Shown piece after piece: positions 5,601 through 38,024 of a DNA stretch of 64,000 bases. A model generated the notes under the pieces. That model saw only the letters and a program-made list of their open reading frames with translations, was not told where the DNA came from and ran no database searches. Numbering within the stretch: position 1 is the stretch's first letter; each line of letters begins with the position of its first letter. Origin of the DNA: a virus. Lineage: Duplodnaviria; Heunggongvirae; Uroviricota; Caudoviricetes. The stretch lies in IMG/VR virus record IMGVR_UViG_2639762884_000001; one strand, given 5' to 3'. The translations under genes were made by a program, and so were the position numbers.

Positions 5601-6659
5601 CTATTCGTAGTTAAGCTCACCGAACAGACTGAACATCAAGTCACCATCCAAAATTTCAAAGGGCAACTCGACATACTCATCCTTATGTCTCGGAATTGCG
5701 TTGCCGTCGTTAGGGGCATTCTTGGTATAACCTTTTACATGTTTACCGTTTTCTTTTGTATACGGCAGCACGACAATTCGACCGTGATTTTTTGAAATGA
5801 TAGTTCCTTCTTTCCAGAGCGTATTGCCTCTTGAGGTGGTTTCGCTTTCGCTAGCAACTTTAACACTCCAACCTACCTGATTTTTGTCCTCAAACCAGAA
5901 AACAAAGTTGCCAACAACCAGTACCTTTTGCCCATTCCTGAGAGCTTCATCCAGCATTCTTTTTACGCTGGCGAGTTGCAGTAACCGGTTAGCACGCGGC
6001 AGAAGCATTGAGCGAATAGTCGCTTTTGTTTTTCCCCAATGTGCAGCGCCTGATAAACCAAAACCTCTGGCTATGCGTTCTTGGTAGCAGATCTTCGCTG
6101 TCTTAGCTTTGTTGTTATATGAACATTCCCAAGTGTTAGGAGCAACGAGTTGAAGTGAAACTTGGAATTTGGGAAGAAAAACAAAATGTAAGTAAGGCAT
6201 CTCGCTTAGCACGTCAAAAAGGGGTTGACGCAAAGTTTCGTAATCTGGGTTAATTATTAACTCATTTAATGTCACTCGCGGATCGTTGGCGTGTGCCTTA
6301 ATTGCTTCGTTGAGCATTATATGCTCTTCATCCATGAGACGTGATTTGGCTTTGAGTGCTTTGTCAACTTTCAAACGCAATGACTTCTTTTGAAACATAG
6401 ATAGAGGAAGTTTTTCAATGTCAAAGCTCACGTTTTTATTCAGCTCTAATGCCGCTTTTCTTGCTTCAGGATAGTTATCGTAGTCGTCATCAAAAGCGTG
6501 GTTTGGCATACCACGATCAACATATCGCCGATACCAAGCAAGGGTTCCATCATTACGGAGTTTCAGACAGAACATCGACCATTTATTCCGTTCATATTTA
6601 GGCTGAGGCCAAAAAGCCAGTTCGGGAAGGCCATATCCTGGAAGTCTATTCATGCGCAT
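5601..6659 (-). CDS. hypothetical protein
   Basis: Long minus-strand ORF (table 5601..6674, GTG); ATG at 6659 preferred; no recognised motif. Confidence 0.5.
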   Translation of the reverse strand: MRMNRLPGYGLPELAFWPQPKYERNKWSMFCLKLRNDGTLAWYRRYVDRGMPNHAFDDDYDNYPEARKAALELNKNVSFDIEKLPLSMFQKKSLRLKVDKALKAKSRLMDEEHIMLNEAIKAHANDPRVTLNELIINPDYETLRQPLFDVLSEMPYLHFVFLPKFQVSLQLVAPNTWECSYNNKAKTAKICYQERIARGFGLSGAAHWGKTKATIRSMLLPRANRLLQLASVKRMLDEALRNGQKVLVVGNFVFWFEDKNQVGWSVKVASESETTSRGNTLWKEGTIISKNHGRIVVLPYTKENGKHVKGYTKNAPNDGNAIPRHKDEYVELPFEILDGDLMFSLFGELNYE

Positions 6660-32416: not shown

Positions 32417-33490
32417 ATGGCAAAAGGAAAATCCGCACTGGCACTTGCTCTGAAAAAGAAAATCGGTAGCAACGACGAAATTCAGAAAGTAACTCATTGG
32501 ATTGATACAGGCTTTCCACCGTTAAACAAAGCTATTTCTGGTCGTTACGATGGCGGCTTCCCATGTGGTCGTATCGTCGAAGTATTCGGTCCTCCAAGTG
32601 CAGGGAAAACGTTCCTTGCAACAGCAGCGATGATCTCCGCTCAAAAACAAGATGGTCTGGCGGTATTCCTCGATCATGAAAACAGTTTTGACGTTGGCCT
32701 GGCTGTAGCCAATGGCCTGAACGCAGATGAGGATGACGGTCAGTGGGTATACAAGCAGCCAGATACCTTCGAAGACTCTGTAGAGTTGATCGGCACAATA
32801 CTTAAATTGGTTCGTGATGAAGAGCTTATCCCCGAATCAGCACCTATCTGTATCGTGGCTGACTCTCTTGCGTCTATGGTTCCGAACTCCAAAGCTGAGA
32901 AGTTCGAAAAGATGGCTGAAGGCACTGCCAAAGACAAAGATCAGCTAAACATGAACGACAATACGGCACTGGCTCGTGCGACGAGTGCGAACTTCCCTAC
33001 TCTGGCTTTGTGGGCACGCAAATACAACGCCTGCATCATCTTCTTGAATCAGGTTCGCACAAAAATCGGTGTAATGTTTGGCGACCCTACTACGTCGCCA
33101 GGTGGAGATTCACCGAAGTTCTACGCTTCTGTACGTATCCGTCTTGGTGCATCGGTGATGAAGGATGGTAAAGAGAAGATCGGCCAGGACGTAGGCGCAG
33201 AATGCATCAAAAACAAAGTTGCACCACCGTATGGCAAATGCACCTGGAAATTCTACTTCGATCCTACTCGTGGCCTCGACGTTATCGAATCGCTCGTCGA
33301 GTACATGCTGGAAGAAGGATACCTGCCAAAGAACGCCAGCGGGCGAGTTGAAATTGGTGACAAGAAATACACCAAATCGCAGATCGTCGAGATGTATCGG
33401 GAGAAGCCACTGGCTGAAATCATTGCGGCTTTGCAGGCAATCGACGACCGAAGAGCAAAAGACAACCCCACCGAGTCAGTAGAAGAGTAA
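32417..33490 (+). CDS. RecA/UvsX-family recombinase
   Basis: Walker A GPPSAGKTFLA inside RecA-like core; Walker B-like VFLDHE; 357 aa. Confidence 0.8.
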   Translation: MAKGKSALALALKKKIGSNDEIQKVTHWIDTGFPPLNKAISGRYDGGFPCGRIVEVFGPPSAGKTFLATAAMISAQKQDGLAVFLDHENSFDVGLAVANGLNADEDDGQWVYKQPDTFEDSVELIGTILKLVRDEELIPESAPICIVADSLASMVPNSKAEKFEKMAEGTAKDKDQLNMNDNTALARATSANFPTLALWARKYNACIIFLNQVRTKIGVMFGDPTTSPGGDSPKFYASVRIRLGASVMKDGKEKIGQDVGAECIKNKVAPPYGKCTWKFYFDPTRGLDVIESLVEYMLEEGYLPKNASGRVEIGDKKYTKSQIVEMYREKPLAEIIAALQAIDDRRAKDNPTESVEE

Positions 33491-33495
33491 ACACA

Positions 33496-33520
33496 AGGCG
33501 TCCACAGGACGCCTTTTTTA
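33496..33520 (+). terminator. rho-independent terminator
   Basis: aggcgtcc aca ggacgcct followed by ttttttat. Confidence 0.7.
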
Positions 33521-33532
33521 TCTCTTGAAAAT

Positions 33533-33551
33533 ATATAAGTGCTTACTTATT
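33533..33551. promoter_or_regulatory. ATATAAGTGCTTACTTATT motif (family member)
   Basis: Immediately after the terminator, ~30 nt upstream of gene 33583. Confidence 0.3.
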
Positions 33552-33582
33552 ATTTTCGCATAACAACCACATAGGAAAACAC

Positions 33583-33783
33583 ATGATCAAAATCTATCTA
33601 TTGGCAGTAGCCACAGGCCTTTCAGTGGCTCTCATCTACGGTTTACTGGTTCCGTCGCTGATTTCTACCAAGAGTGATTTAGCCGTCATGTTTGGAGTTA
33701 TCGTTGGTTTTGGTGCTCCTGTAATCGGTCTTATTGCTGGTCGTAAGTTTATCAACTCATTAATCAAAGCAAAGGGGAAATAA
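33583..33783 (+). CDS. small two-TM membrane protein
   Basis: 66 aa, two hydrophobic segments; directly precedes the SPFH gene. Confidence 0.5.
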   Translation: MIKIYLLAVATGLSVALIYGLLVPSLISTKSDLAVMFGVIVGFGAPVIGLIAGRKFINSLIKAKGK

Positions 33784-33786
33784 GTA

Positions 33787-34617
33787 ATGAAGAAAGGTTT
33801 ACTTGCAGTTGCTCTGGCGGCTATTTGCACAATGGGTCTTACTGGCTGCGATCGCGTGGAGCCTGGATACGTTGGCATCAAAGTAAACAAATTAGGTGAA
33901 GACAAAGGGATTGGTGAAGTGGTTGGCGTTGGTCGCCAATGGACAGGTCTTAACACCGAACTTTACGTATTCCCGACCTTCAAACAAATGAAGACCTACG
34001 ACGAGCCGTTCACATTCCAGATGAGTGACGGTACTGCTATTGGTCACAAAATTGGCGTTGCGTATCTGGTTAATCGTGACAAGGTAACGACGGTGTTCCA
34101 GACCTATCGCAAAGGCGTAGACGATATCACCGAATCAGATCTGCGTCAGAAAATTGCCGACTCTCTAAACCGTTTGGCCAGCCGTATGACCACTGACTCA
34201 TTTATCGACGGTGGTAAGGCACAATTGCTGGACAACGCACTGAAAGATATTCAGAAAGAGATGTCTCCGGTTGGTATTGAGGTACTGAGCCTGTCATGGG
34301 TTGGAAAGCCTGATTACCCAAAAACTGTCATTGAATCTATTAACGCCAAAGTAACGGCTAACCAGCGTACTCTGCAACGTCAGCAGGAAGTTGAACAACG
34401 TAAAGCTGAGGCGAATATGCTACGTGAACAGGCTAATGGTGAAGCTGATGCTATCCGTGCTCGTGCGCAAGCAGAAGCAGACGCCATTCGTCTGCGCGGT
34501 GAAGCTCTGCGTCAAAACCCGAACGTTATGGAACTGGAAGCCATCAATAAATGGAATGGCCAGTTACCGCAGTACATGACTCAAGGGGCTAACACTCCTT
34601 TCATTACAGTGAAATAA
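33787..34617 (+). CDS. SPFH/band-7 (stomatin/HflC-like) lipoprotein
   Basis: Lipobox LTGC in signal peptide; SPFH-like core; C-terminal coiled coil (QRTLQRQQEVEQRKAEANMLREQANGEADAIRARAQAEADAIRLRGEA). Confidence 0.65.
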   Translation: MKKGLLAVALAAICTMGLTGCDRVEPGYVGIKVNKLGEDKGIGEVVGVGRQWTGLNTELYVFPTFKQMKTYDEPFTFQMSDGTAIGHKIGVAYLVNRDKVTTVFQTYRKGVDDITESDLRQKIADSLNRLASRMTTDSFIDGGKAQLLDNALKDIQKEMSPVGIEVLSLSWVGKPDYPKTVIESINAKVTANQRTLQRQQEVEQRKAEANMLREQANGEADAIRARAQAEADAIRLRGEALRQNPNVMELEAINKWNGQLPQYMTQGANTPFITVK

Positions 34618-34633: not shown

Positions 34634-34660
34634 AGGCGTCCAGTTGGACGCCTTTTTTAT
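34634..34660 (+). terminator. rho-independent terminator
   Basis: aggcgtcca gt tggacgcct followed by tttttta. Confidence 0.7.
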
Positions 34661-34677
34661 CGCAATTATCTTATTAA

Positions 34678-36275: not shown

Positions 36276-36808
36276 ACCGCTGACAGCATACACAATCAAC
36301 TGCCGCTGATAGCATATCGAGAGTCTATCTCACCGCTCACAGCATACTTTACTCGATTTTTTACCGCTGACAGCATACTTAAGACATTGCATGAATAATG
36401 TGTACCGGTATGGGTATAACCAGAACAAAATTACCGCTGGCAGCATACGAAGGTCTGATATATGCCATTAATTACCGCTGATAGCATATCCAAACAAAAA
36501 TTCCTCAATAAAACACCGCTGACAGCATACGTTCTATCAGGGAGCAGCAGGGAATAAATACCTTTCACTACAAGTAATCAGCGCAATGGGAATAGAATGT
36601 TAGTGAGCGCAAACCTATATGGAATGCACTCTTCGAGGTTAGTAACCACTGGGGAGGTATAAAAGAGCATTGAGTGGTGATAGATGATTTACCGCTCACA
36701 GCATACGTTTATCTCACTATACCGCTGGTAGCATATCTTTAACCGTTCACAGCATACTTTTCAGAAAAATAGCCGCTGATAGCATACATTTCACCGCTGA
36801 CAGCATAT
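36276..36808. repeat. iteron array I (12 copies of ACCGCTGACAGCATAC-like 16-mer) downstream of repA
   Basis: Copies start near 36276, 36302, 36332, 36363, 36433, 36474, 36515, 36691, 36721, 36742, 36772, 36793; variants CCGCT(G/C)(A/G)(C/T)AGCATA(C/T). Confidence 0.8.
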
Positions 36809-37902
36809 CAAAGCAGTTTGAGACTATTGGAAAGGATCTCAATCATCTTGATATTTTCAGGCGTCAAATTCTGCGAAAGTTCAGTTATCTTGTTGATAAT
36901 GTTCTGTTTAGCATCAATTTCCCCGGCTTTCTCATCTGGTTTTTTGGGTTCGATGTCTTCAGGTTTTGGCGGTGCGACTTTAAGTTTTGGATTGCGGCTG
37001 TGAATCTGGATATAGATCGACCGCCCTCGCTTAATCTCGCTGTATTCGAGATAGCCCAAATCTTGGAGAGCTTTTAAGCCGTTACGTATAGTCTGATTCT
37101 GCGAGCTTACATTCCTGCTACTCAAATTGAGTCGCGCACGCAATCGAGCAAGCGATACCGGCGCAGGCTTGGTTGGAAGACTTTCGATGAAGGTGTACAG
37201 AGCCTGTGCTGTTTCTTTGCGTGGTAGCTTATTGATAACCTTTAACTGCAAAAGAACCTTATGGTCAAAGCGATATAGTTCGGCCAGCTTCGGTTCTGCA
37301 TAGAACACCACCGTATCTTTCTGCTCGTTGTAGTCCACGCTATTGATGAGGTGCACCATCAGAAGCGAGATCTTGTTAGAGCCGTCGACGTTCTTTTCTT
37401 CATACGTTCTCTGGAAAGACAGAGTTGTACGCATGATCTTCAAAAGACTGTTTGTAAGCCGGTCGCGGAGTGTTTTGCGGATCTGTGACGATGGATAGCC
37501 ACAAAACTTCGCAAATTTCGTGATGCTTAACTCGACACGACCGTTAGGTTCGCCGTATTCTGCCAGCGAACGCACAACGCCCACCCACGTTTTGAAATCA
37601 TGATCCATGTCGAGACGAGGACCGGTTATCTTGATATCGGAATAGCCTTCAGAACGGGCTACTTCGAGCTGAACAAGCTCCTTTGAAGCATCGATCTCAT
37701 TTGGCTTGTTACGCTTGCTGTATTTTGTCCCCTTGAGCGTGGGCACGAACAATCCCAGCCGCATCAACGCAATTGGTTGGACTGTATTGTTGCTATTAGG
37801 GACAAGTTCCCCTGTGTACAATTCAAGGGAACCTTCTTCAAAGTTGTCGAGATTATCTTCTACTTCTTTGTTATTTTTACCTTTTTTATTTTTTGTGGAC
37901 AT
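36808..37902 (-). CDS. repA: plasmid-type replication initiator (RepA-like, iteron-binding)
   Basis: 365-aa basic protein flanked on both sides by iterons; ATG 37902 with AAAGG RBS (table start 38022 would run through the origin iterons); call rests on context. Confidence 0.6.
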   Translation of the reverse strand: MSTKNKKGKNNKEVEDNLDNFEEGSLELYTGELVPNSNNTVQPIALMRLGLFVPTLKGTKYSKRNKPNEIDASKELVQLEVARSEGYSDIKITGPRLDMDHDFKTWVGVVRSLAEYGEPNGRVELSITKFAKFCGYPSSQIRKTLRDRLTNSLLKIMRTTLSFQRTYEEKNVDGSNKISLLMVHLINSVDYNEQKDTVVFYAEPKLAELYRFDHKVLLQLKVINKLPRKETAQALYTFIESLPTKPAPVSLARLRARLNLSSRNVSSQNQTIRNGLKALQDLGYLEYSEIKRGRSIYIQIHSRNPKLKVAPPKPEDIEPKKPDEKAGEIDAKQNIINKITELSQNLTPENIKMIEILSNSLKLL

Positions 37903-37922
37903 GTGGACACCTTTGTCATTCA

Positions 37923-38024
37923 ACCGCTGACAGCATACTTGATTTGCCGCTGACAGAATACCAAAAACAGTTGGCAGCATACGGTGAACCGCTGACAGAC
38001 TATCAATTACCGCTGACAGCATAC
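37923..38024. repeat. iteron array II (4-5 copies) upstream of repA: candidate origin
   Basis: Same 16-mer at ~37923, 37946, 37971 (partial), 37988, 38009 with ~21-25 bp spacing. Confidence 0.75.

Follow-up and report, generated by a model that had tools for sequence, protein, structure and literature searches.

An SPFH lipoprotein of an SSU5-type phage-plasmid and its predicted two-helix membrane partner

Why would a phage carry the gene for an SPFH protein directly behind the gene for a very small membrane protein? SPFH proteins, i.e., prohibitins, stomatins, flotillins, and HflK/C, are universal membrane scaffolds, the cargo and purpose of which are debated. Viral SPFH proteins are widespread, and none of them has a known role (PMC13239085, PMC8540360). 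The question was raised by a locus within a stretch of 64,000 nucleotides, in the following called the window, which sequence comparison identified as an SSU5-type E. coli phage-plasmid, with 99% identity to a known element of this type. The mobile-element setting assumed in a preliminary description of this DNA is thereby confirmed. The description had also postulated a 66-aa protein with two transmembrane segments, followed by a lipoprotein, and both open reading frames are indeed present at exactly 33583-33783 and 33787-34617 on the plus strand, the first one encoding two hydrophobic stretches. The locus comprises the following features:

33495..33515, plus strand: upstream terminator-like hairpin, AAGGCGTCC-ACA-GGACGCCTT, then TTTTTT (terminator scan; stem conservation)
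33525..33553, plus strand: sigma-70-like promoter, TTGAAA-17 nt-TATTAT (promoter scan, 10/12 matches; conserved block)
33583..33783, plus strand: partner gene, predicted two-helix inner-membrane hairpin of 66 aa (open reading frame; PHROG 1130; motif conservation; dN/dS; fusions)
33787-34617, plus strand: SPFH/Band 7 lipoprotein gene, 276 aa (open reading frame; Pfam; PHROG; AF2)
33787..33849, plus strand: signal peptide and lipobox L-T-G-C (sequence; conservation of the Cys; Asp at +2)
33853..34413, plus strand: SPFH/Band 7 domain, residues 23-209 (Pfam PF01145; AF2; Foldseek)
34321..34551, plus strand: long alanine/glutamate-rich helix (residues 179-243) and second helix (245-255) (AF2; alignment with HflK/C and prohibitin; Flotillin match)
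34552..34617, plus strand: conserved C-terminal tail K-W-N-G-x-L-P...P-F-I (invariant columns; low pLDDT)
34634..34653, plus strand: downstream terminator-like hairpin, AGGCGTCC-AGTT-GGACGCCT, then TTTTTT (terminator scan; conservation)

The promoter and the terminators are consensus matches retrieved by scans, and their conservation was analyzed in related elements. The upstream terminator-like hairpin is located directly 3' of a RecA/UvsX-like gene and delimits the unit on its upstream side; its stem is kept in phage Cyrano, Y. pestis pMT, S. Typhi pHCM2, and K. pneumoniae pA4. The downstream boundary is formed by a near-copy of this hairpin, which is conserved in all five aligned SSU5-type elements. 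The hairpin GGCGTCC..GGACGCC exists in only two copies in the 64-kb window, namely the upstream one and that at 34635-34652, and a 16-nt exact direct repeat, GGACGCCTTTTTTATC, is found at 33507-33522 and 34646-34661. The promoter is part of the block TTGAAAATATATAAGT(A/G)CTTACTTAT, which occurs once in the window. Y. pestis pMT, S. Typhi pHCM2, and K. pneumoniae pA4 share this block with the E. coli window, and in phage Cyrano it is altered at a few positions. It is nearly invariant, although the coding DNA of the compared elements is only about 80% identical. The palindrome AAGTACTT may be an operator. With its conserved sigma-70-type promoter and two terminators, the unit would be transcribed separately in the phage-plasmid, and it could therefore be made in the lysogen. 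The whole unit, including its own predicted promoter, has a size of about 1.1 kb and is portable; a DUF7238 protein is encoded downstream of it.

The arrangement of the two genes is tight. An AGGA is located 6 nt 5' of the ATG of the first gene, only 3 nt separate the two genes in the window, and the Shine-Dalgarno motif of the second gene lies within the end of the first. At many other loci the two genes overlap by 4 nt, which is the geometry of translational coupling.

The product of the second gene had been described as stomatin/HflC-like, and this assignment holds at the levels of sequence and predicted fold. The protein matches the Pfam family Band_7 (PF01145) with 106.2 bits (cut-off 23.6; E 2.6e-30) over residues 23-209, covering model positions 2-176 of 176, and PHROG 200 'lipoprotein' (E 3e-108), a family without assigned mechanism. 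The AF2 monomer model has a pLDDT of 88.3 and consists of the SPFH domain, with block values of mostly 87-98 that go down to 80 at residues 31-40, a 65-residue helix (179-243), and a second helix (245-255). The two helices are the C-terminal coiled coil noticed previously. In a Foldseek search the model matched prohibitin, HflK/C, erlin, stomatin, and flotillin with E-values of 2e-14 to 1e-9; for these and for QmcA the probability was 1.00 over 246-315 aligned columns. The best full-length matches were HflK/C and prohibitin (8rrh, 7vhq, 9cz2; E about 1e-14), and residues 208-266 gave a weak match to Pfam Flotillin. A fold search in BFVD retrieved only unnamed viral Band 7 proteins. According to the model, helices 179-243 and 245-255 are probably the counterparts of the wall helices in SPFH cages. 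The C-terminal tail is disordered in the monomer model (pLDDT 46-66), and nevertheless W256, G258, and P261 do not vary in two alignments, of 50 and of 104 homologues. The comparison with solved SPFH cages, which have C-terminal caps, makes the tail a candidate cap or oligomerization element. The gene is under purifying selection (omega 0.01-0.07), as is the partner gene (dN/dS 0.14-0.28), and gene-wide positive selection, which would have hinted at an arms race, was found in neither of them.

The N-terminus of the protein, MKKGLLAVALAAICTMGLTGC followed by DR, contains the lipobox L-T-G-C with Cys21 and an Asp (Asp22) at position +2, in agreement with the lipobox noted before. The start MKK-GLLAVALAAICTMG-LTGC exhibits the basic n-region, the hydrophobic h-region, and the lipobox ([LVI][ASTVI][GAS]C) of lipoproteins, and Cys21 is the predicted lipidated N-terminus. 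This cysteine is conserved in at least 90% of 104 SPFH homologues, and a cysteine is found at the lipobox position in 109 of 143 full-length cluster representatives. In enterobacteria, Asp at +2 is the residue for retention in the inner membrane. It is present in 20 of the 21 unique enterobacterial members, which suggests that they are kept in the inner membrane. Distant members have S, E, T, or G at this position; where it is Ser, Thr, or Glu, the sequences from outside the enterobacteria do not reveal whether the protein stays in the inner membrane. The second gene product is thus an SPFH protein that belongs structurally with prohibitin and HflK/C, and in which a lipoprotein signal replaces the transmembrane anchor.

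The structural relationship raises the possibility that the phage protein mimics HflK/C. HflK/C, QmcA, and prohibitins act together with FtsH-type proteases, and the host HflK/C affects the turnover of lambda CII. A phage cage might enclose or compete for FtsH or another inner-membrane protease and thereby alter the turnover of membrane proteins, be they of the phage or of the host, and of regulators of the lysis-lysogeny decision; an FtsH-type idea has been raised for Bruynoghevirus phages (PMC8540360). The best structural matches are just those cages that are associated with FtsH or m-AAA proteases, the predicted extracytoplasmic orientation is the same, and the sequence is weakly similar to those of HflK and HflC. 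However, the scores are far below the NCBIfam equivalog cut-offs (30.2 versus 134.4 bits for HflC, TIGR01932; 18.7 versus 159.4 bits for HflK, TIGR01933), a single SPFH gene with a lipid anchor is present instead of a K/C pair with transmembrane helices, and the pair is abundant in strictly virulent phages, for which no lysogeny decision exists. Therefore, we consider this explanation unlikely, yet it is the main competitor of the model favored below.

A different role would be that of an envelope or virulence factor acquired by lysogenic conversion, i.e., a lipoprotein at the cell surface or in vesicles that alters capsule, adhesion, serum resistance, or innate recognition. A precedent is PM0222 of a P. 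multocida prophage (OAZ06802.1), an HflK/C-like protein of 25-35 kDa that is found in outer-membrane vesicles and elicits TLR1/2 signaling, and the deletion of which attenuates virulence (PMC9872710); it is a possible member of the phage SPFH family. The presence of the pair on Y. pestis pMT, on S. Typhi pHCM2, and in Stx2a phages would also fit. The Asp at +2 of the enterobacterial members, however, speaks for retention in the inner membrane, an inner-membrane partner and natural fusions with it fit poorly with a protein at the cell surface, and members of the family are widely distributed among virulent phages from environmental bacteria. Taken together, a surface role seems quite improbable. 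If PM0222 does belong to the family, its reported presence in outer-membrane vesicles counts against a location in the inner membrane.

What, then, is the small protein? It matches PHROG 1130 'membrane protein' (E 2.1e-25), again a family without assigned mechanism. Its basic N-terminal tail is one residue long, and the 13 residues that are left after helix 2 form a tail with five K/R and no D/E. The residue before helix 1 is K or R in 88% of the partners, and the charge distribution points to an inner-membrane protein with N-in/C-in topology. The partners in phages are 50-90 residues long, and their sole strongly conserved residues are P-x-L-I-S and a Gly 12 residues later (P24-S-L-I-S28 and G38 in the window protein), with conservation values of 92% for P, 97% for L/M, 96% for S, and 95% for G in 77 unique homologues. 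These residues cluster at one membrane edge, which in the predicted topology is the periplasmic one, at the outer ends of the helices. Alternatively, helix 1 could be a cleaved signal peptide, and a Pro at -6 and small residues at -3 and -1 fit to this reading. It is less likely than the hairpin, because the hydrophobic stretch comprises about 21-27 residues and the best-conserved Ser would be at -2.

A word-indexed search with the 66-aa query retrieved close relatives from E. coli and Shigella and none that were more distant, and distant partners were located by position, by the motif, and with a custom HMM. A Pfam search with the window protein and 19 diverse homologues (E <= 1) yielded no consistent family, and a search of the partner profile against the PDB no relative; in both cases chance matches to various hydrophobic families were obtained. 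A pilin reading was dropped, as the Pfam and PDB matches were of this scattered type. The preliminary description had seen in the locus an echo of bacterial SPFH-NfeD pairs and had proposed an HMM search for both domains. Only half of this idea survived. Linkage of an SPFH protein with a small membrane protein is real, gene order (small membrane protein, then SPFH) and operon structure resemble qmcA-ybbJ-type pairs, and the structural matches of the SPFH protein include QmcA-YbbJ (8z5g). In contrast to the Band_7 domain, NfeD (PF01957) was detected neither in the window protein (E <= 0.01) nor when the 19 diverse homologues were included (E <= 1), and a protein of 66 aa with a 13-residue tail has no room for the defining OB-fold. 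Membership of the small protein in the NfeD family is therefore refuted, and a classical SPFH-NfeD operon in the literal sense is extremely improbable.

Evidence that the small protein belongs to the SPFH protein comes from their linkage. The hairpin gene adjoins the SPFH gene at 80 of 81 close viral loci, and of the 99 distinct SPFH sequences that 178 loci represent, about 85 have it as a neighbor. These include SSU5-, P1-, P2-, and lambda-like temperate phages, N4-like, 145-kb, and crAss-like phages, Y. pestis pMT, and S. Typhi pHCM2. Viral contigs were searched with single distant proteins and exact look-ups were made, and further pairs were found in prophages of Nevskia, Alcaligenes, and Cohaesibacter, on a Luteibacter chromosome, and on a 202-kb phage contig. 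Virulent carriers are Erwinia phage S6, Pseudomonas phage TL, and the crAss-like IAS virus, and about 5% of the complete genomes of E. coli contain the pair. Among 31 SPFH groups the hairpin is the sole common neighbor, and a search for a third conserved gene among the neighbors of these groups found none; one large apparent cluster was an artefact, an antisense open reading frame inside the SPFH gene. Most SPFH relatives without a detectable partner also lack the N-terminal Cys or have N-terminal transmembrane segments of their own. Separation of the two genes in relatives had been named as an observation that would speak against a pair; the opposite was observed, with linkage in many phage lineages and even fusion of the two. 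In fusions, which occur in many distant relatives, the order is hairpin, basic linker (47 K/R versus 19 D/E), lipobox helix, and SPFH domain, and both the hairpin motif and the lipobox are retained. An AF2 model of a natural fusion has three N-terminal helices, with a pLDDT of only 58-80 in the N-terminal part. Given the recurrence across loci, the sequence comparisons rule out that the pairing is a product of chance, and they identify the hairpin as a genuine, dedicated partner of the SPFH protein.

The genomic contexts also bear on function. The pair behaves as a cassette, and in P1-like phages it occupies the slot between upl/plp and tRNA-Met-ban, in which classic P1 has tciA-tciB-tciC. At the inspected loci its neighbors are early, replication, or recombination genes and not lysis genes. 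A spanin-like combination of an inner-membrane protein and a lipoprotein was dismissed, as the hairpin has no periplasmic domain and no lysis cassette was present in the inspected contexts. The pair occurs in temperate and in virulent phages, which fits a function that is useful in infection as well as in lysogeny. As it is common in virulent phages, including phages of environmental bacteria, the fitness of the lysogen, for which an effect had been considered, is not the whole story.

Could the hairpin instead be an effector and the cage its keeper? Class II holins and pinholins are small proteins with two helices in N-in/C-in topology and a basic C-terminal tail. The hairpin has the same size, layout, and tail, and the two proteins would be made stoichiometrically. 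A holin-like or pore-forming peptide held inactive by the cage could upon release depolarize the membrane, for abortive exclusion or for the timing of lysis. Against this possibility stand the lack of a match to any holin family in Pfam or PHROGs, with PHROG 1130 being annotated merely as 'membrane protein', the lack of lysis genes in the neighborhood, and the fusions, which tether the hairpin permanently to the SPFH domain and are a better fit to a structural partner. In addition, a search of PADLOC-DB 2.0 (E <= 0.1) revealed no known defense component for the hairpin, the SPFH protein, or the DUF7238 protein encoded downstream. We therefore attribute a low probability to a caged effector.

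The model that we favor, with the chances of being right or wrong about evenly balanced, is that of an SPFH cage in the inner membrane that faces the periplasm, is anchored by the hairpin, and fences the membrane for the phage, with superinfection exclusion as the first choice for its function and modulation of FtsH as the main rival. The SPFH protein would be exported and lipidated, and in enterobacteria Asp at +2 would hold it in the inner membrane, so that the SPFH domain would face the periplasm, as in HflK/C. Via its long helices and the invariant C-terminal tail it would oligomerize to a ring or cage. The hairpin, produced in equal amounts, would dock beneath the cage wall with its periplasmic-edge motif and provide a fence that spans the bilayer, which is beyond the reach of a lipid anchor alone. 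Linkage and fusion are the evidence that suggests this contact, and the fusions would fix both the topology of the partner and a 1:1 stoichiometry. Since no third component is conserved, the pair must act on the host membrane or on a protein of the host. The cage could fence off or stiffen patches of the host inner membrane to the benefit of the phage, and the outcome would be that the entry of superinfecting phage DNA, or another attack from outside, is blocked; alternatively, it could capture a host membrane protein such as FtsH. The missing match to a known defense or exclusion family in PADLOC and the absence of gene-wide positive selection in the partner count against a guarding function.

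The new aspect is that the common lineage of phage SPFH lipoproteins has a dedicated, apparently obligatory hairpin partner with a fixed motif at the predicted periplasmic edge. In its boldest form, which we put forward tentatively and regard as rather doubtful, the model describes a widespread and previously unrecognized phage system, in which a periplasmic cage of lipoprotein SPFH subunits and a co-translated hairpin seal or partition the inner membrane against superinfecting DNA, colicins, or effectors of abortive infection. If this were true, it would be the first function assigned to a viral SPFH protein and would define a new, non-NfeD class of SPFH partners, with users ranging from crAss-like viruses to P1, Stx phages, and the phage-plasmids of Y. 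pestis and S. Typhi. Its occurrence on Y. pestis pMT, S. Typhi pHCM2, and Stx2a phages may also give the pair medical relevance.

Among known systems, the HflK/HflC cage of E. coli, which associates with FtsH, and prohibitin (PHB1/PHB2) share with the phage protein the SPFH domain, the long wall helices, the C-terminal cap region, and the predicted orientation towards the periplasm or the intermembrane space. However, the sequence identity is only about 17%. HflK/HflC have an N-terminal transmembrane anchor and are encoded in a heteromeric K plus C operon, whereas the phage unit combines a lipobox signal peptide on a single SPFH protein with the 66-aa hairpin. HflK/C and prohibitin belong to the core genome and have no dedicated two-helix partner, while the pair is carried by phages. 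In the SPFH-NfeD pairs QmcA-YbbJ, YqiK-YqiJ, PH1511-PH1510, and FloT-YuaF, an SPFH protein is likewise co-transcribed with a small membrane partner, which is thought to assemble with the SPFH cage. NfeD proteins are, however, defined by an OB-fold domain, and the phage hairpin has neither this nor any protease domain; furthermore, QmcA-type SPFH domains face the cytoplasm, in contrast to the phage protein, which is predicted to be exported. The tciA-tciB-tciC genes of P1 are also a small accessory cassette with membrane proteins in the same slot of P1-like phage-plasmids, but the Tci proteins (TciA is TerB-like) are unrelated to the pair and the equivalence is positional only. The superinfection-exclusion proteins T4 Imm, P22 SieA, T5 Llp, and TP-J34 Ltp are small inner-membrane proteins or lipoproteins that are expressed early or from the prophage and protect the envelope of the infected cell. 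None of them is an SPFH protein or related to the pair in sequence or fold, and the analogy is thus functional, based on a comparable genomic setting and expression logic. A precedent in concept is YdjG/YdjH-YdjI (SamGHI) of B. subtilis. The phage hairpin appears unrelated in sequence to YdjG/YdjH, and YdjI is cytosolic and tied to PspA; a membrane protein pair that is not of the NfeD type is reported to recruit an SPFH protein in this system (bioRxiv 10.64898/2026.02.06.704340, PMC8581546).

The gene for the SPFH/Band 7 lipoprotein and the gene for its small hairpin partner appear from their flanking signals to form a self-contained unit of two genes that has conserved promoter-like and terminator-like elements of its own, arranged as follows.

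32417-33490, RecA/UvsX-like gene, directly 5' of the upstream terminator-like hairpin
33495-33515, upstream terminator-like GC-rich hairpin followed by a T-run (terminator scan)
33525-33553, sigma-70-like promoter, TTGAAA-17 nt-TATTAT (promoter consensus match)
33583-33783, + strand, hairpin ORF, 66 aa (ORF call)
33787-34617, + strand, SPFH ORF, 276 aa (ORF call)
34634-34653, downstream hairpin with T-run (terminator scan)

The two ORFs are separated by 3 nt. The Shine-Dalgarno sequence of the hairpin gene (AGGA) lies 6 nt ahead of the first ATG, and that of the SPFH gene (AAGGGGA) lies within the 3' end of the hairpin gene, 8 nt ahead of the second ATG. The two terminator hairpins (33497-33513 and 34635-34652) are near-copies that have the stem GGCGTCC/GGACGCC and an exact 16-nt repeat, GGACGCCTTTTTTATC (33507-33522 and 34646-34661), in common; no further copy of this hairpin exists elsewhere in the 64-kb window. 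The duplication may be the footprint of a cassette insertion or exchange, or a duplicated terminator. A 26-nt block, TTGAAAATATATAAGTACTTACTTAT, lies between the -35 and -10 hexamers and includes the palindrome AAGTACTT, a candidate operator. Across SSU5-type elements the upstream hairpin, both hexamers, the 26-nt block and the downstream hairpin are near-invariant, although the coding DNA of the same elements is only ~80% identical. Because these signals match consensus sequences and are conserved, the pair looks like an autonomous transcription unit. The promoter block at 33525-33550, TTGAAAATATATAAGT(A/G)CTTACTTAT, is more conserved than flanking coding DNA in plasmids of E. coli, Y. pestis (pMT), S. 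Typhi (pHCM2) and K. pneumoniae (the window and loci L180-L182 and L082). The palindrome AAGTACTT is found between the hexamers in most SSU5-type copies, and the window copy reads AAGTGCTT.

The region is 99% identical to the 107.6-kb record 'Escherichia phage CMS-2020a' and 93-96% identical to the phages PhiR41_1 and Cyrano. The window is an SSU5-type phage-plasmid, a group that includes S. Typhi pHCM2 and Y. pestis pMT1 (PMC7969092). The genes around the pair encode a gp32-like SSB, a 5'-3' exonuclease, RecA/UvsX, a DUF7238 protein and a Rep3-type initiator. In Y. pestis pMT, S. Typhi pHCM2 and K. pneumoniae pA4 the pair likewise follows the recombinase gene, and the next downstream gene differs. 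On pMT (L180 4371-5405) and pHCM2 (L181 19540-20586) the window's pair recurs at ~81% DNA identity and is followed by a DUF2591 gene, versus DUF7238 in the window. The Rep3-type replication initiator (Pfam Rep3_N, PHROG 775; 36808-38022, - strand) lies 2.2 kb downstream of the pair, which therefore belongs to the part of the element devoted to plasmid replication and recombination, away from the structural and lysis genes. The RecA/UvsX-like gene encodes 357 aa in the window versus 779 aa in Cyrano (L082 3752-6091), and many related plasmids have it annotated as intein-containing or as a LAGLIDADG homing endonuclease; therefore, an intein is present in some close relatives and absent from others, just 5' of the pair.

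The preliminary description of an SPFH lipoprotein next to a small two-TM protein was confirmed by a Band_7 match, a lipobox and two hydrophobic stretches in the partner. Pfam Band_7 covers residues 23-209 of the SPFH protein (106 bits, E 2.6e-30), and PHROG 200 'lipoprotein' matches with E 3e-108. The N-terminus reads MKKGLLAVALAAICTMGLTGC|DR: a basic start and a hydrophobic core precede the lipobox L-T-G-C, the make-up of a lipoprotein signal. In the AF2 model, built on 104 homologues (pLDDT 88.3), the SPFH domain is followed by a helix of 65 residues (179-243), a second, short helix (245-255) and a tail of low confidence. Foldseek aligned nearly the whole chain with solved cage subunits (E 2e-14 to 4e-8), namely prohibitin (8rrh), HflK/C (7vhq and 9cz2), erlin, stomatin, flotillin and QmcA (8z5g), and the model points to an SPFH fold of the cage type. 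Identity with HflC or HflK is ruled out by sequence (30 and 19 bits versus cut-offs of 134 and 159); the sole PDB sequence match is HflK, with E 0.007. The tail motif W256-x-G258-x-L-P261 is among the residues invariant throughout the family, and by analogy with solved cages we take it to be a probable oligomerisation or cap element. In Enterobacteriaceae, Asp at position +2 is the canonical inner-membrane retention signal for lipoproteins. Of 21 distinct enterobacterial members, 20 have it; more distant ones carry Ser, Glu, Thr or Gly at this position, to which no sorting rule applies. From Asp+2, the inner-membrane partner and the natural fusions described below, we infer that the SPFH protein is anchored in the inner membrane and faces the periplasm, oriented like HflK/C and the prohibitins.

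The 66-aa partner matches no Pfam family; PHROG 1130 'membrane protein' does match it. It has two hydrophobic stretches, a short loop (PSLISTKSDL) and a tail with five K/R and no acidic residue. In 77 distinct homologues from related loci, helix 1 is preceded by K/R (88%) and ends in P (92%), any residue, L/M (97%), I/V/L (87%), S (96%) and A/S (75%), and 12 residues later there is a Gly (95%); the remaining positions are variable but hydrophobic. The positive-inside rule suggests an N-in/C-in hairpin with all conserved residues at the periplasmic edge. The partner is conserved, either adjacent or fused, and constrained at one membrane edge only. Judged from its dN/dS of 0.14-0.28 among 32 distinct SSU5-type alleles (versus 0.01-0.07 for the SPFH gene), the hairpin ORF is a real gene. 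Between SSU5-type elements with near-identical SPFH genes (dS < 0.02; loci L002-L046 and L180-L182) the partner dS is ~0.21; recombination therefore seems to reassort the partner alleles independently of an SPFH gene that lies only 3 nt away. The hairpin gene was left unannotated in several deposited phage genomes, e.g., phiP27 (L177 ~2780-2965) and RCS47 (L083, 5' of 3565), and the SPFH gene often carries a wrong label, 'serine protease' or 'transposase fusion protein'.

The linkage of the two genes in relatives is far stronger than could be anticipated from the window alone. A hydrophobic ORF of 55-113 aa (typically 66-78) lies directly 5' of the SPFH gene in 80 of 81 closely related loci, ending -20 to +3 nt from the SPFH start, and the sole exception is without upstream DNA. 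These loci are on three unrelated backbones, i.e., SSU5-like phage-plasmids, P1-like phage-plasmids (e.g., RCS47) and the P2-like phage P88. Between the window and P88 the small proteins are 25% and the SPFH proteins 77% identical. In the P1-like elements the pair lies between upl/plp and tRNA-Met-ban, the exact slot of tciA-tciB-tciC in classic P1 (RCS47 pair, L083 3348-4392; P1 tci genes, L084 3352-4057), which shows a cassette swap at a fixed site. Among relatives with 38-45% identity (prophages of Nevskia, Alcaligenes and Cohaesibacter, a Luteibacter chromosomal site and a 202-kb phage contig), a motif-bearing hairpin gene is directly 5' of the SPFH gene in all five, with a 4-nt overlap in four. 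Three added viral scans with distant queries gave a total of 178 loci with 99 distinct SPFH sequences; by partner HMM and motif, a partner was found for about 85 of the 99, plus two outright fusions. None was detected for a divergent branch without N-terminal Cys (<=36% identity; L118, L127, L152-155, L172), two proteins that bring a multi-helix N-terminal extension of their own (L120, L122), a truncated gene (L148) and Caulobacter phage Karma (29% identity), where another kind of multi-helix gene lies upstream. A few SPFH proteins lack the Cys yet have the partner (e.g., L096, L098). Neighbour clustering of 31 SPFH groups revealed the partner as the only gene common to many groups.

When 1.84 billion cluster representatives were searched exhaustively with HMMER, 2,816 relatives emerged (195 at E <= 1e-30), and many 330-390-aa relatives bear the hairpin at their own N-terminus, e.g., P0157 (LIPSFISAPST), P0168 (VLPWLISAKSD) and P0184 (LVPALVSAPDT). 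The order is hairpin, linker, a third hydrophobic helix usually still ending in the lipobox Cys, and SPFH domain; in P0162, by contrast, the hairpin is C-terminal. By a strict script, at least 11 of 143 full-length representatives are such fusions, with 47 K/R versus 19 D/E in their linkers. Two fusions were confirmed on their own contigs, both within phage-like gene neighbourhoods. AF2 placed helices 2-25, 32-67 and 69-85 ahead of the SPFH domain of the fusion P0308. The fusions argue for physical association of hairpin and SPFH protein at 1:1 stoichiometry, and they fix the predicted topology, with both hairpin ends and the linker in the cytoplasm and the motif loop and the SPFH domain outside. 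That the hairpin itself is the effector seems improbable. One fusion-bearing metagenomic phage contig (L088) encodes an Acb2/Tad1-hairpin family protein, an anti-defence sponge family, at 5689-5892, a few kb downstream of the fusion and amid many small early genes.

The pair occurs cassette-like in unrelated phages. The SPFH protein was found by tblastn in 373 phage records, which include temperate phages (phiP27, Stx2a-converting phages, P1-like phages, P88, Burkholderia phi644-2) as well as virulent or large ones (N4-like Erwinia S6 and G7C-like coliphages, the 145-kb SSE121/KB57 group, Bruynoghevirus, jumbo Salmonella phages, phiCbK-like phages, Lak megaphages and crAss-like viruses). The partner is gp044 in S6, gp10 in TL (one gene away from the SPFH gene) and gp017 in the crAss-like IAS virus, where Thr replaces Pro, and it is also present in phiP27. 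A megablast-detectable copy is present in 283 of 5,426 complete E. coli genomes, on plasmids in 195 of the 283. A search of one genome per species found copies in Kluyvera, Buttiauxella, Y. pestis, Shigella, Salmonella and Pantoea, and relatives with 25-30% identity in Bacteroidales.

No paper was found that gives a function to phage SPFH proteins or mentions the hairpin partner. The role of the SPFH protein "is still not clear" in a Bruynoghevirus study of 2021 (PMC8540360), and the reason for its presence "remains unclear" in a 2026 study of an N4-like phage (PMC13239085). We tentatively favour a role in which the pair shields or partitions the inner membrane against attack from outside, namely superinfection exclusion at the DNA-entry step, because it occurs without any other phage component and in an early or accessory gene setting, is shared by virulent and temperate phages alike, and takes the place of the tci cassette in P1-like phages. 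The pair has no match among known defence systems. A holin or spanin pair was rejected, since no such family matched and the pair lies outside lysis cassettes in the contexts inspected. Capture or modulation of FtsH by the cage ranks next after exclusion and is rather doubtful. The sole experimental lead comes from a prophage protein of P. multocida, PM0222, which is found in outer-membrane vesicles and the deletion of which changes capsule, adhesion and virulence (PMC9872710). It is a candidate relative, 'HflK/C-like' by description. Envelope or virulence conversion by the pair is distinctly unlikely. Members of the SPFH family already carry the annotations SPFH, lipoprotein or prohibitin family, and therefore the element itself is not new. 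The novelty lies in the obligatory hairpin partner and its motif, in the fusions and in the wide range of phages.

The likening of the pair to bacterial SPFH-NfeD pairs fails as a claim of membership: none of 20 diverse partners matched NfeD at E <= 1, and the partner has no room for an OB-fold. A survey of prokaryotic SPFH families has described small subfamilies without NfeD partner and without characterised members (PMC2636767). In the mechanism that we consider most likely, SPFH lipoproteins would assemble as a ring or cage at the inner membrane, on its periplasmic face, and hairpins in equal number would dock under the cage wall via P-x-L-I-S/G. This arrangement would explain why most relatives without detectable partner have a membrane-spanning N-terminus of their own. 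The docked hairpins would form a palisade across the bilayer, a role that in HflK/C is served by the proteins' own transmembrane helices.
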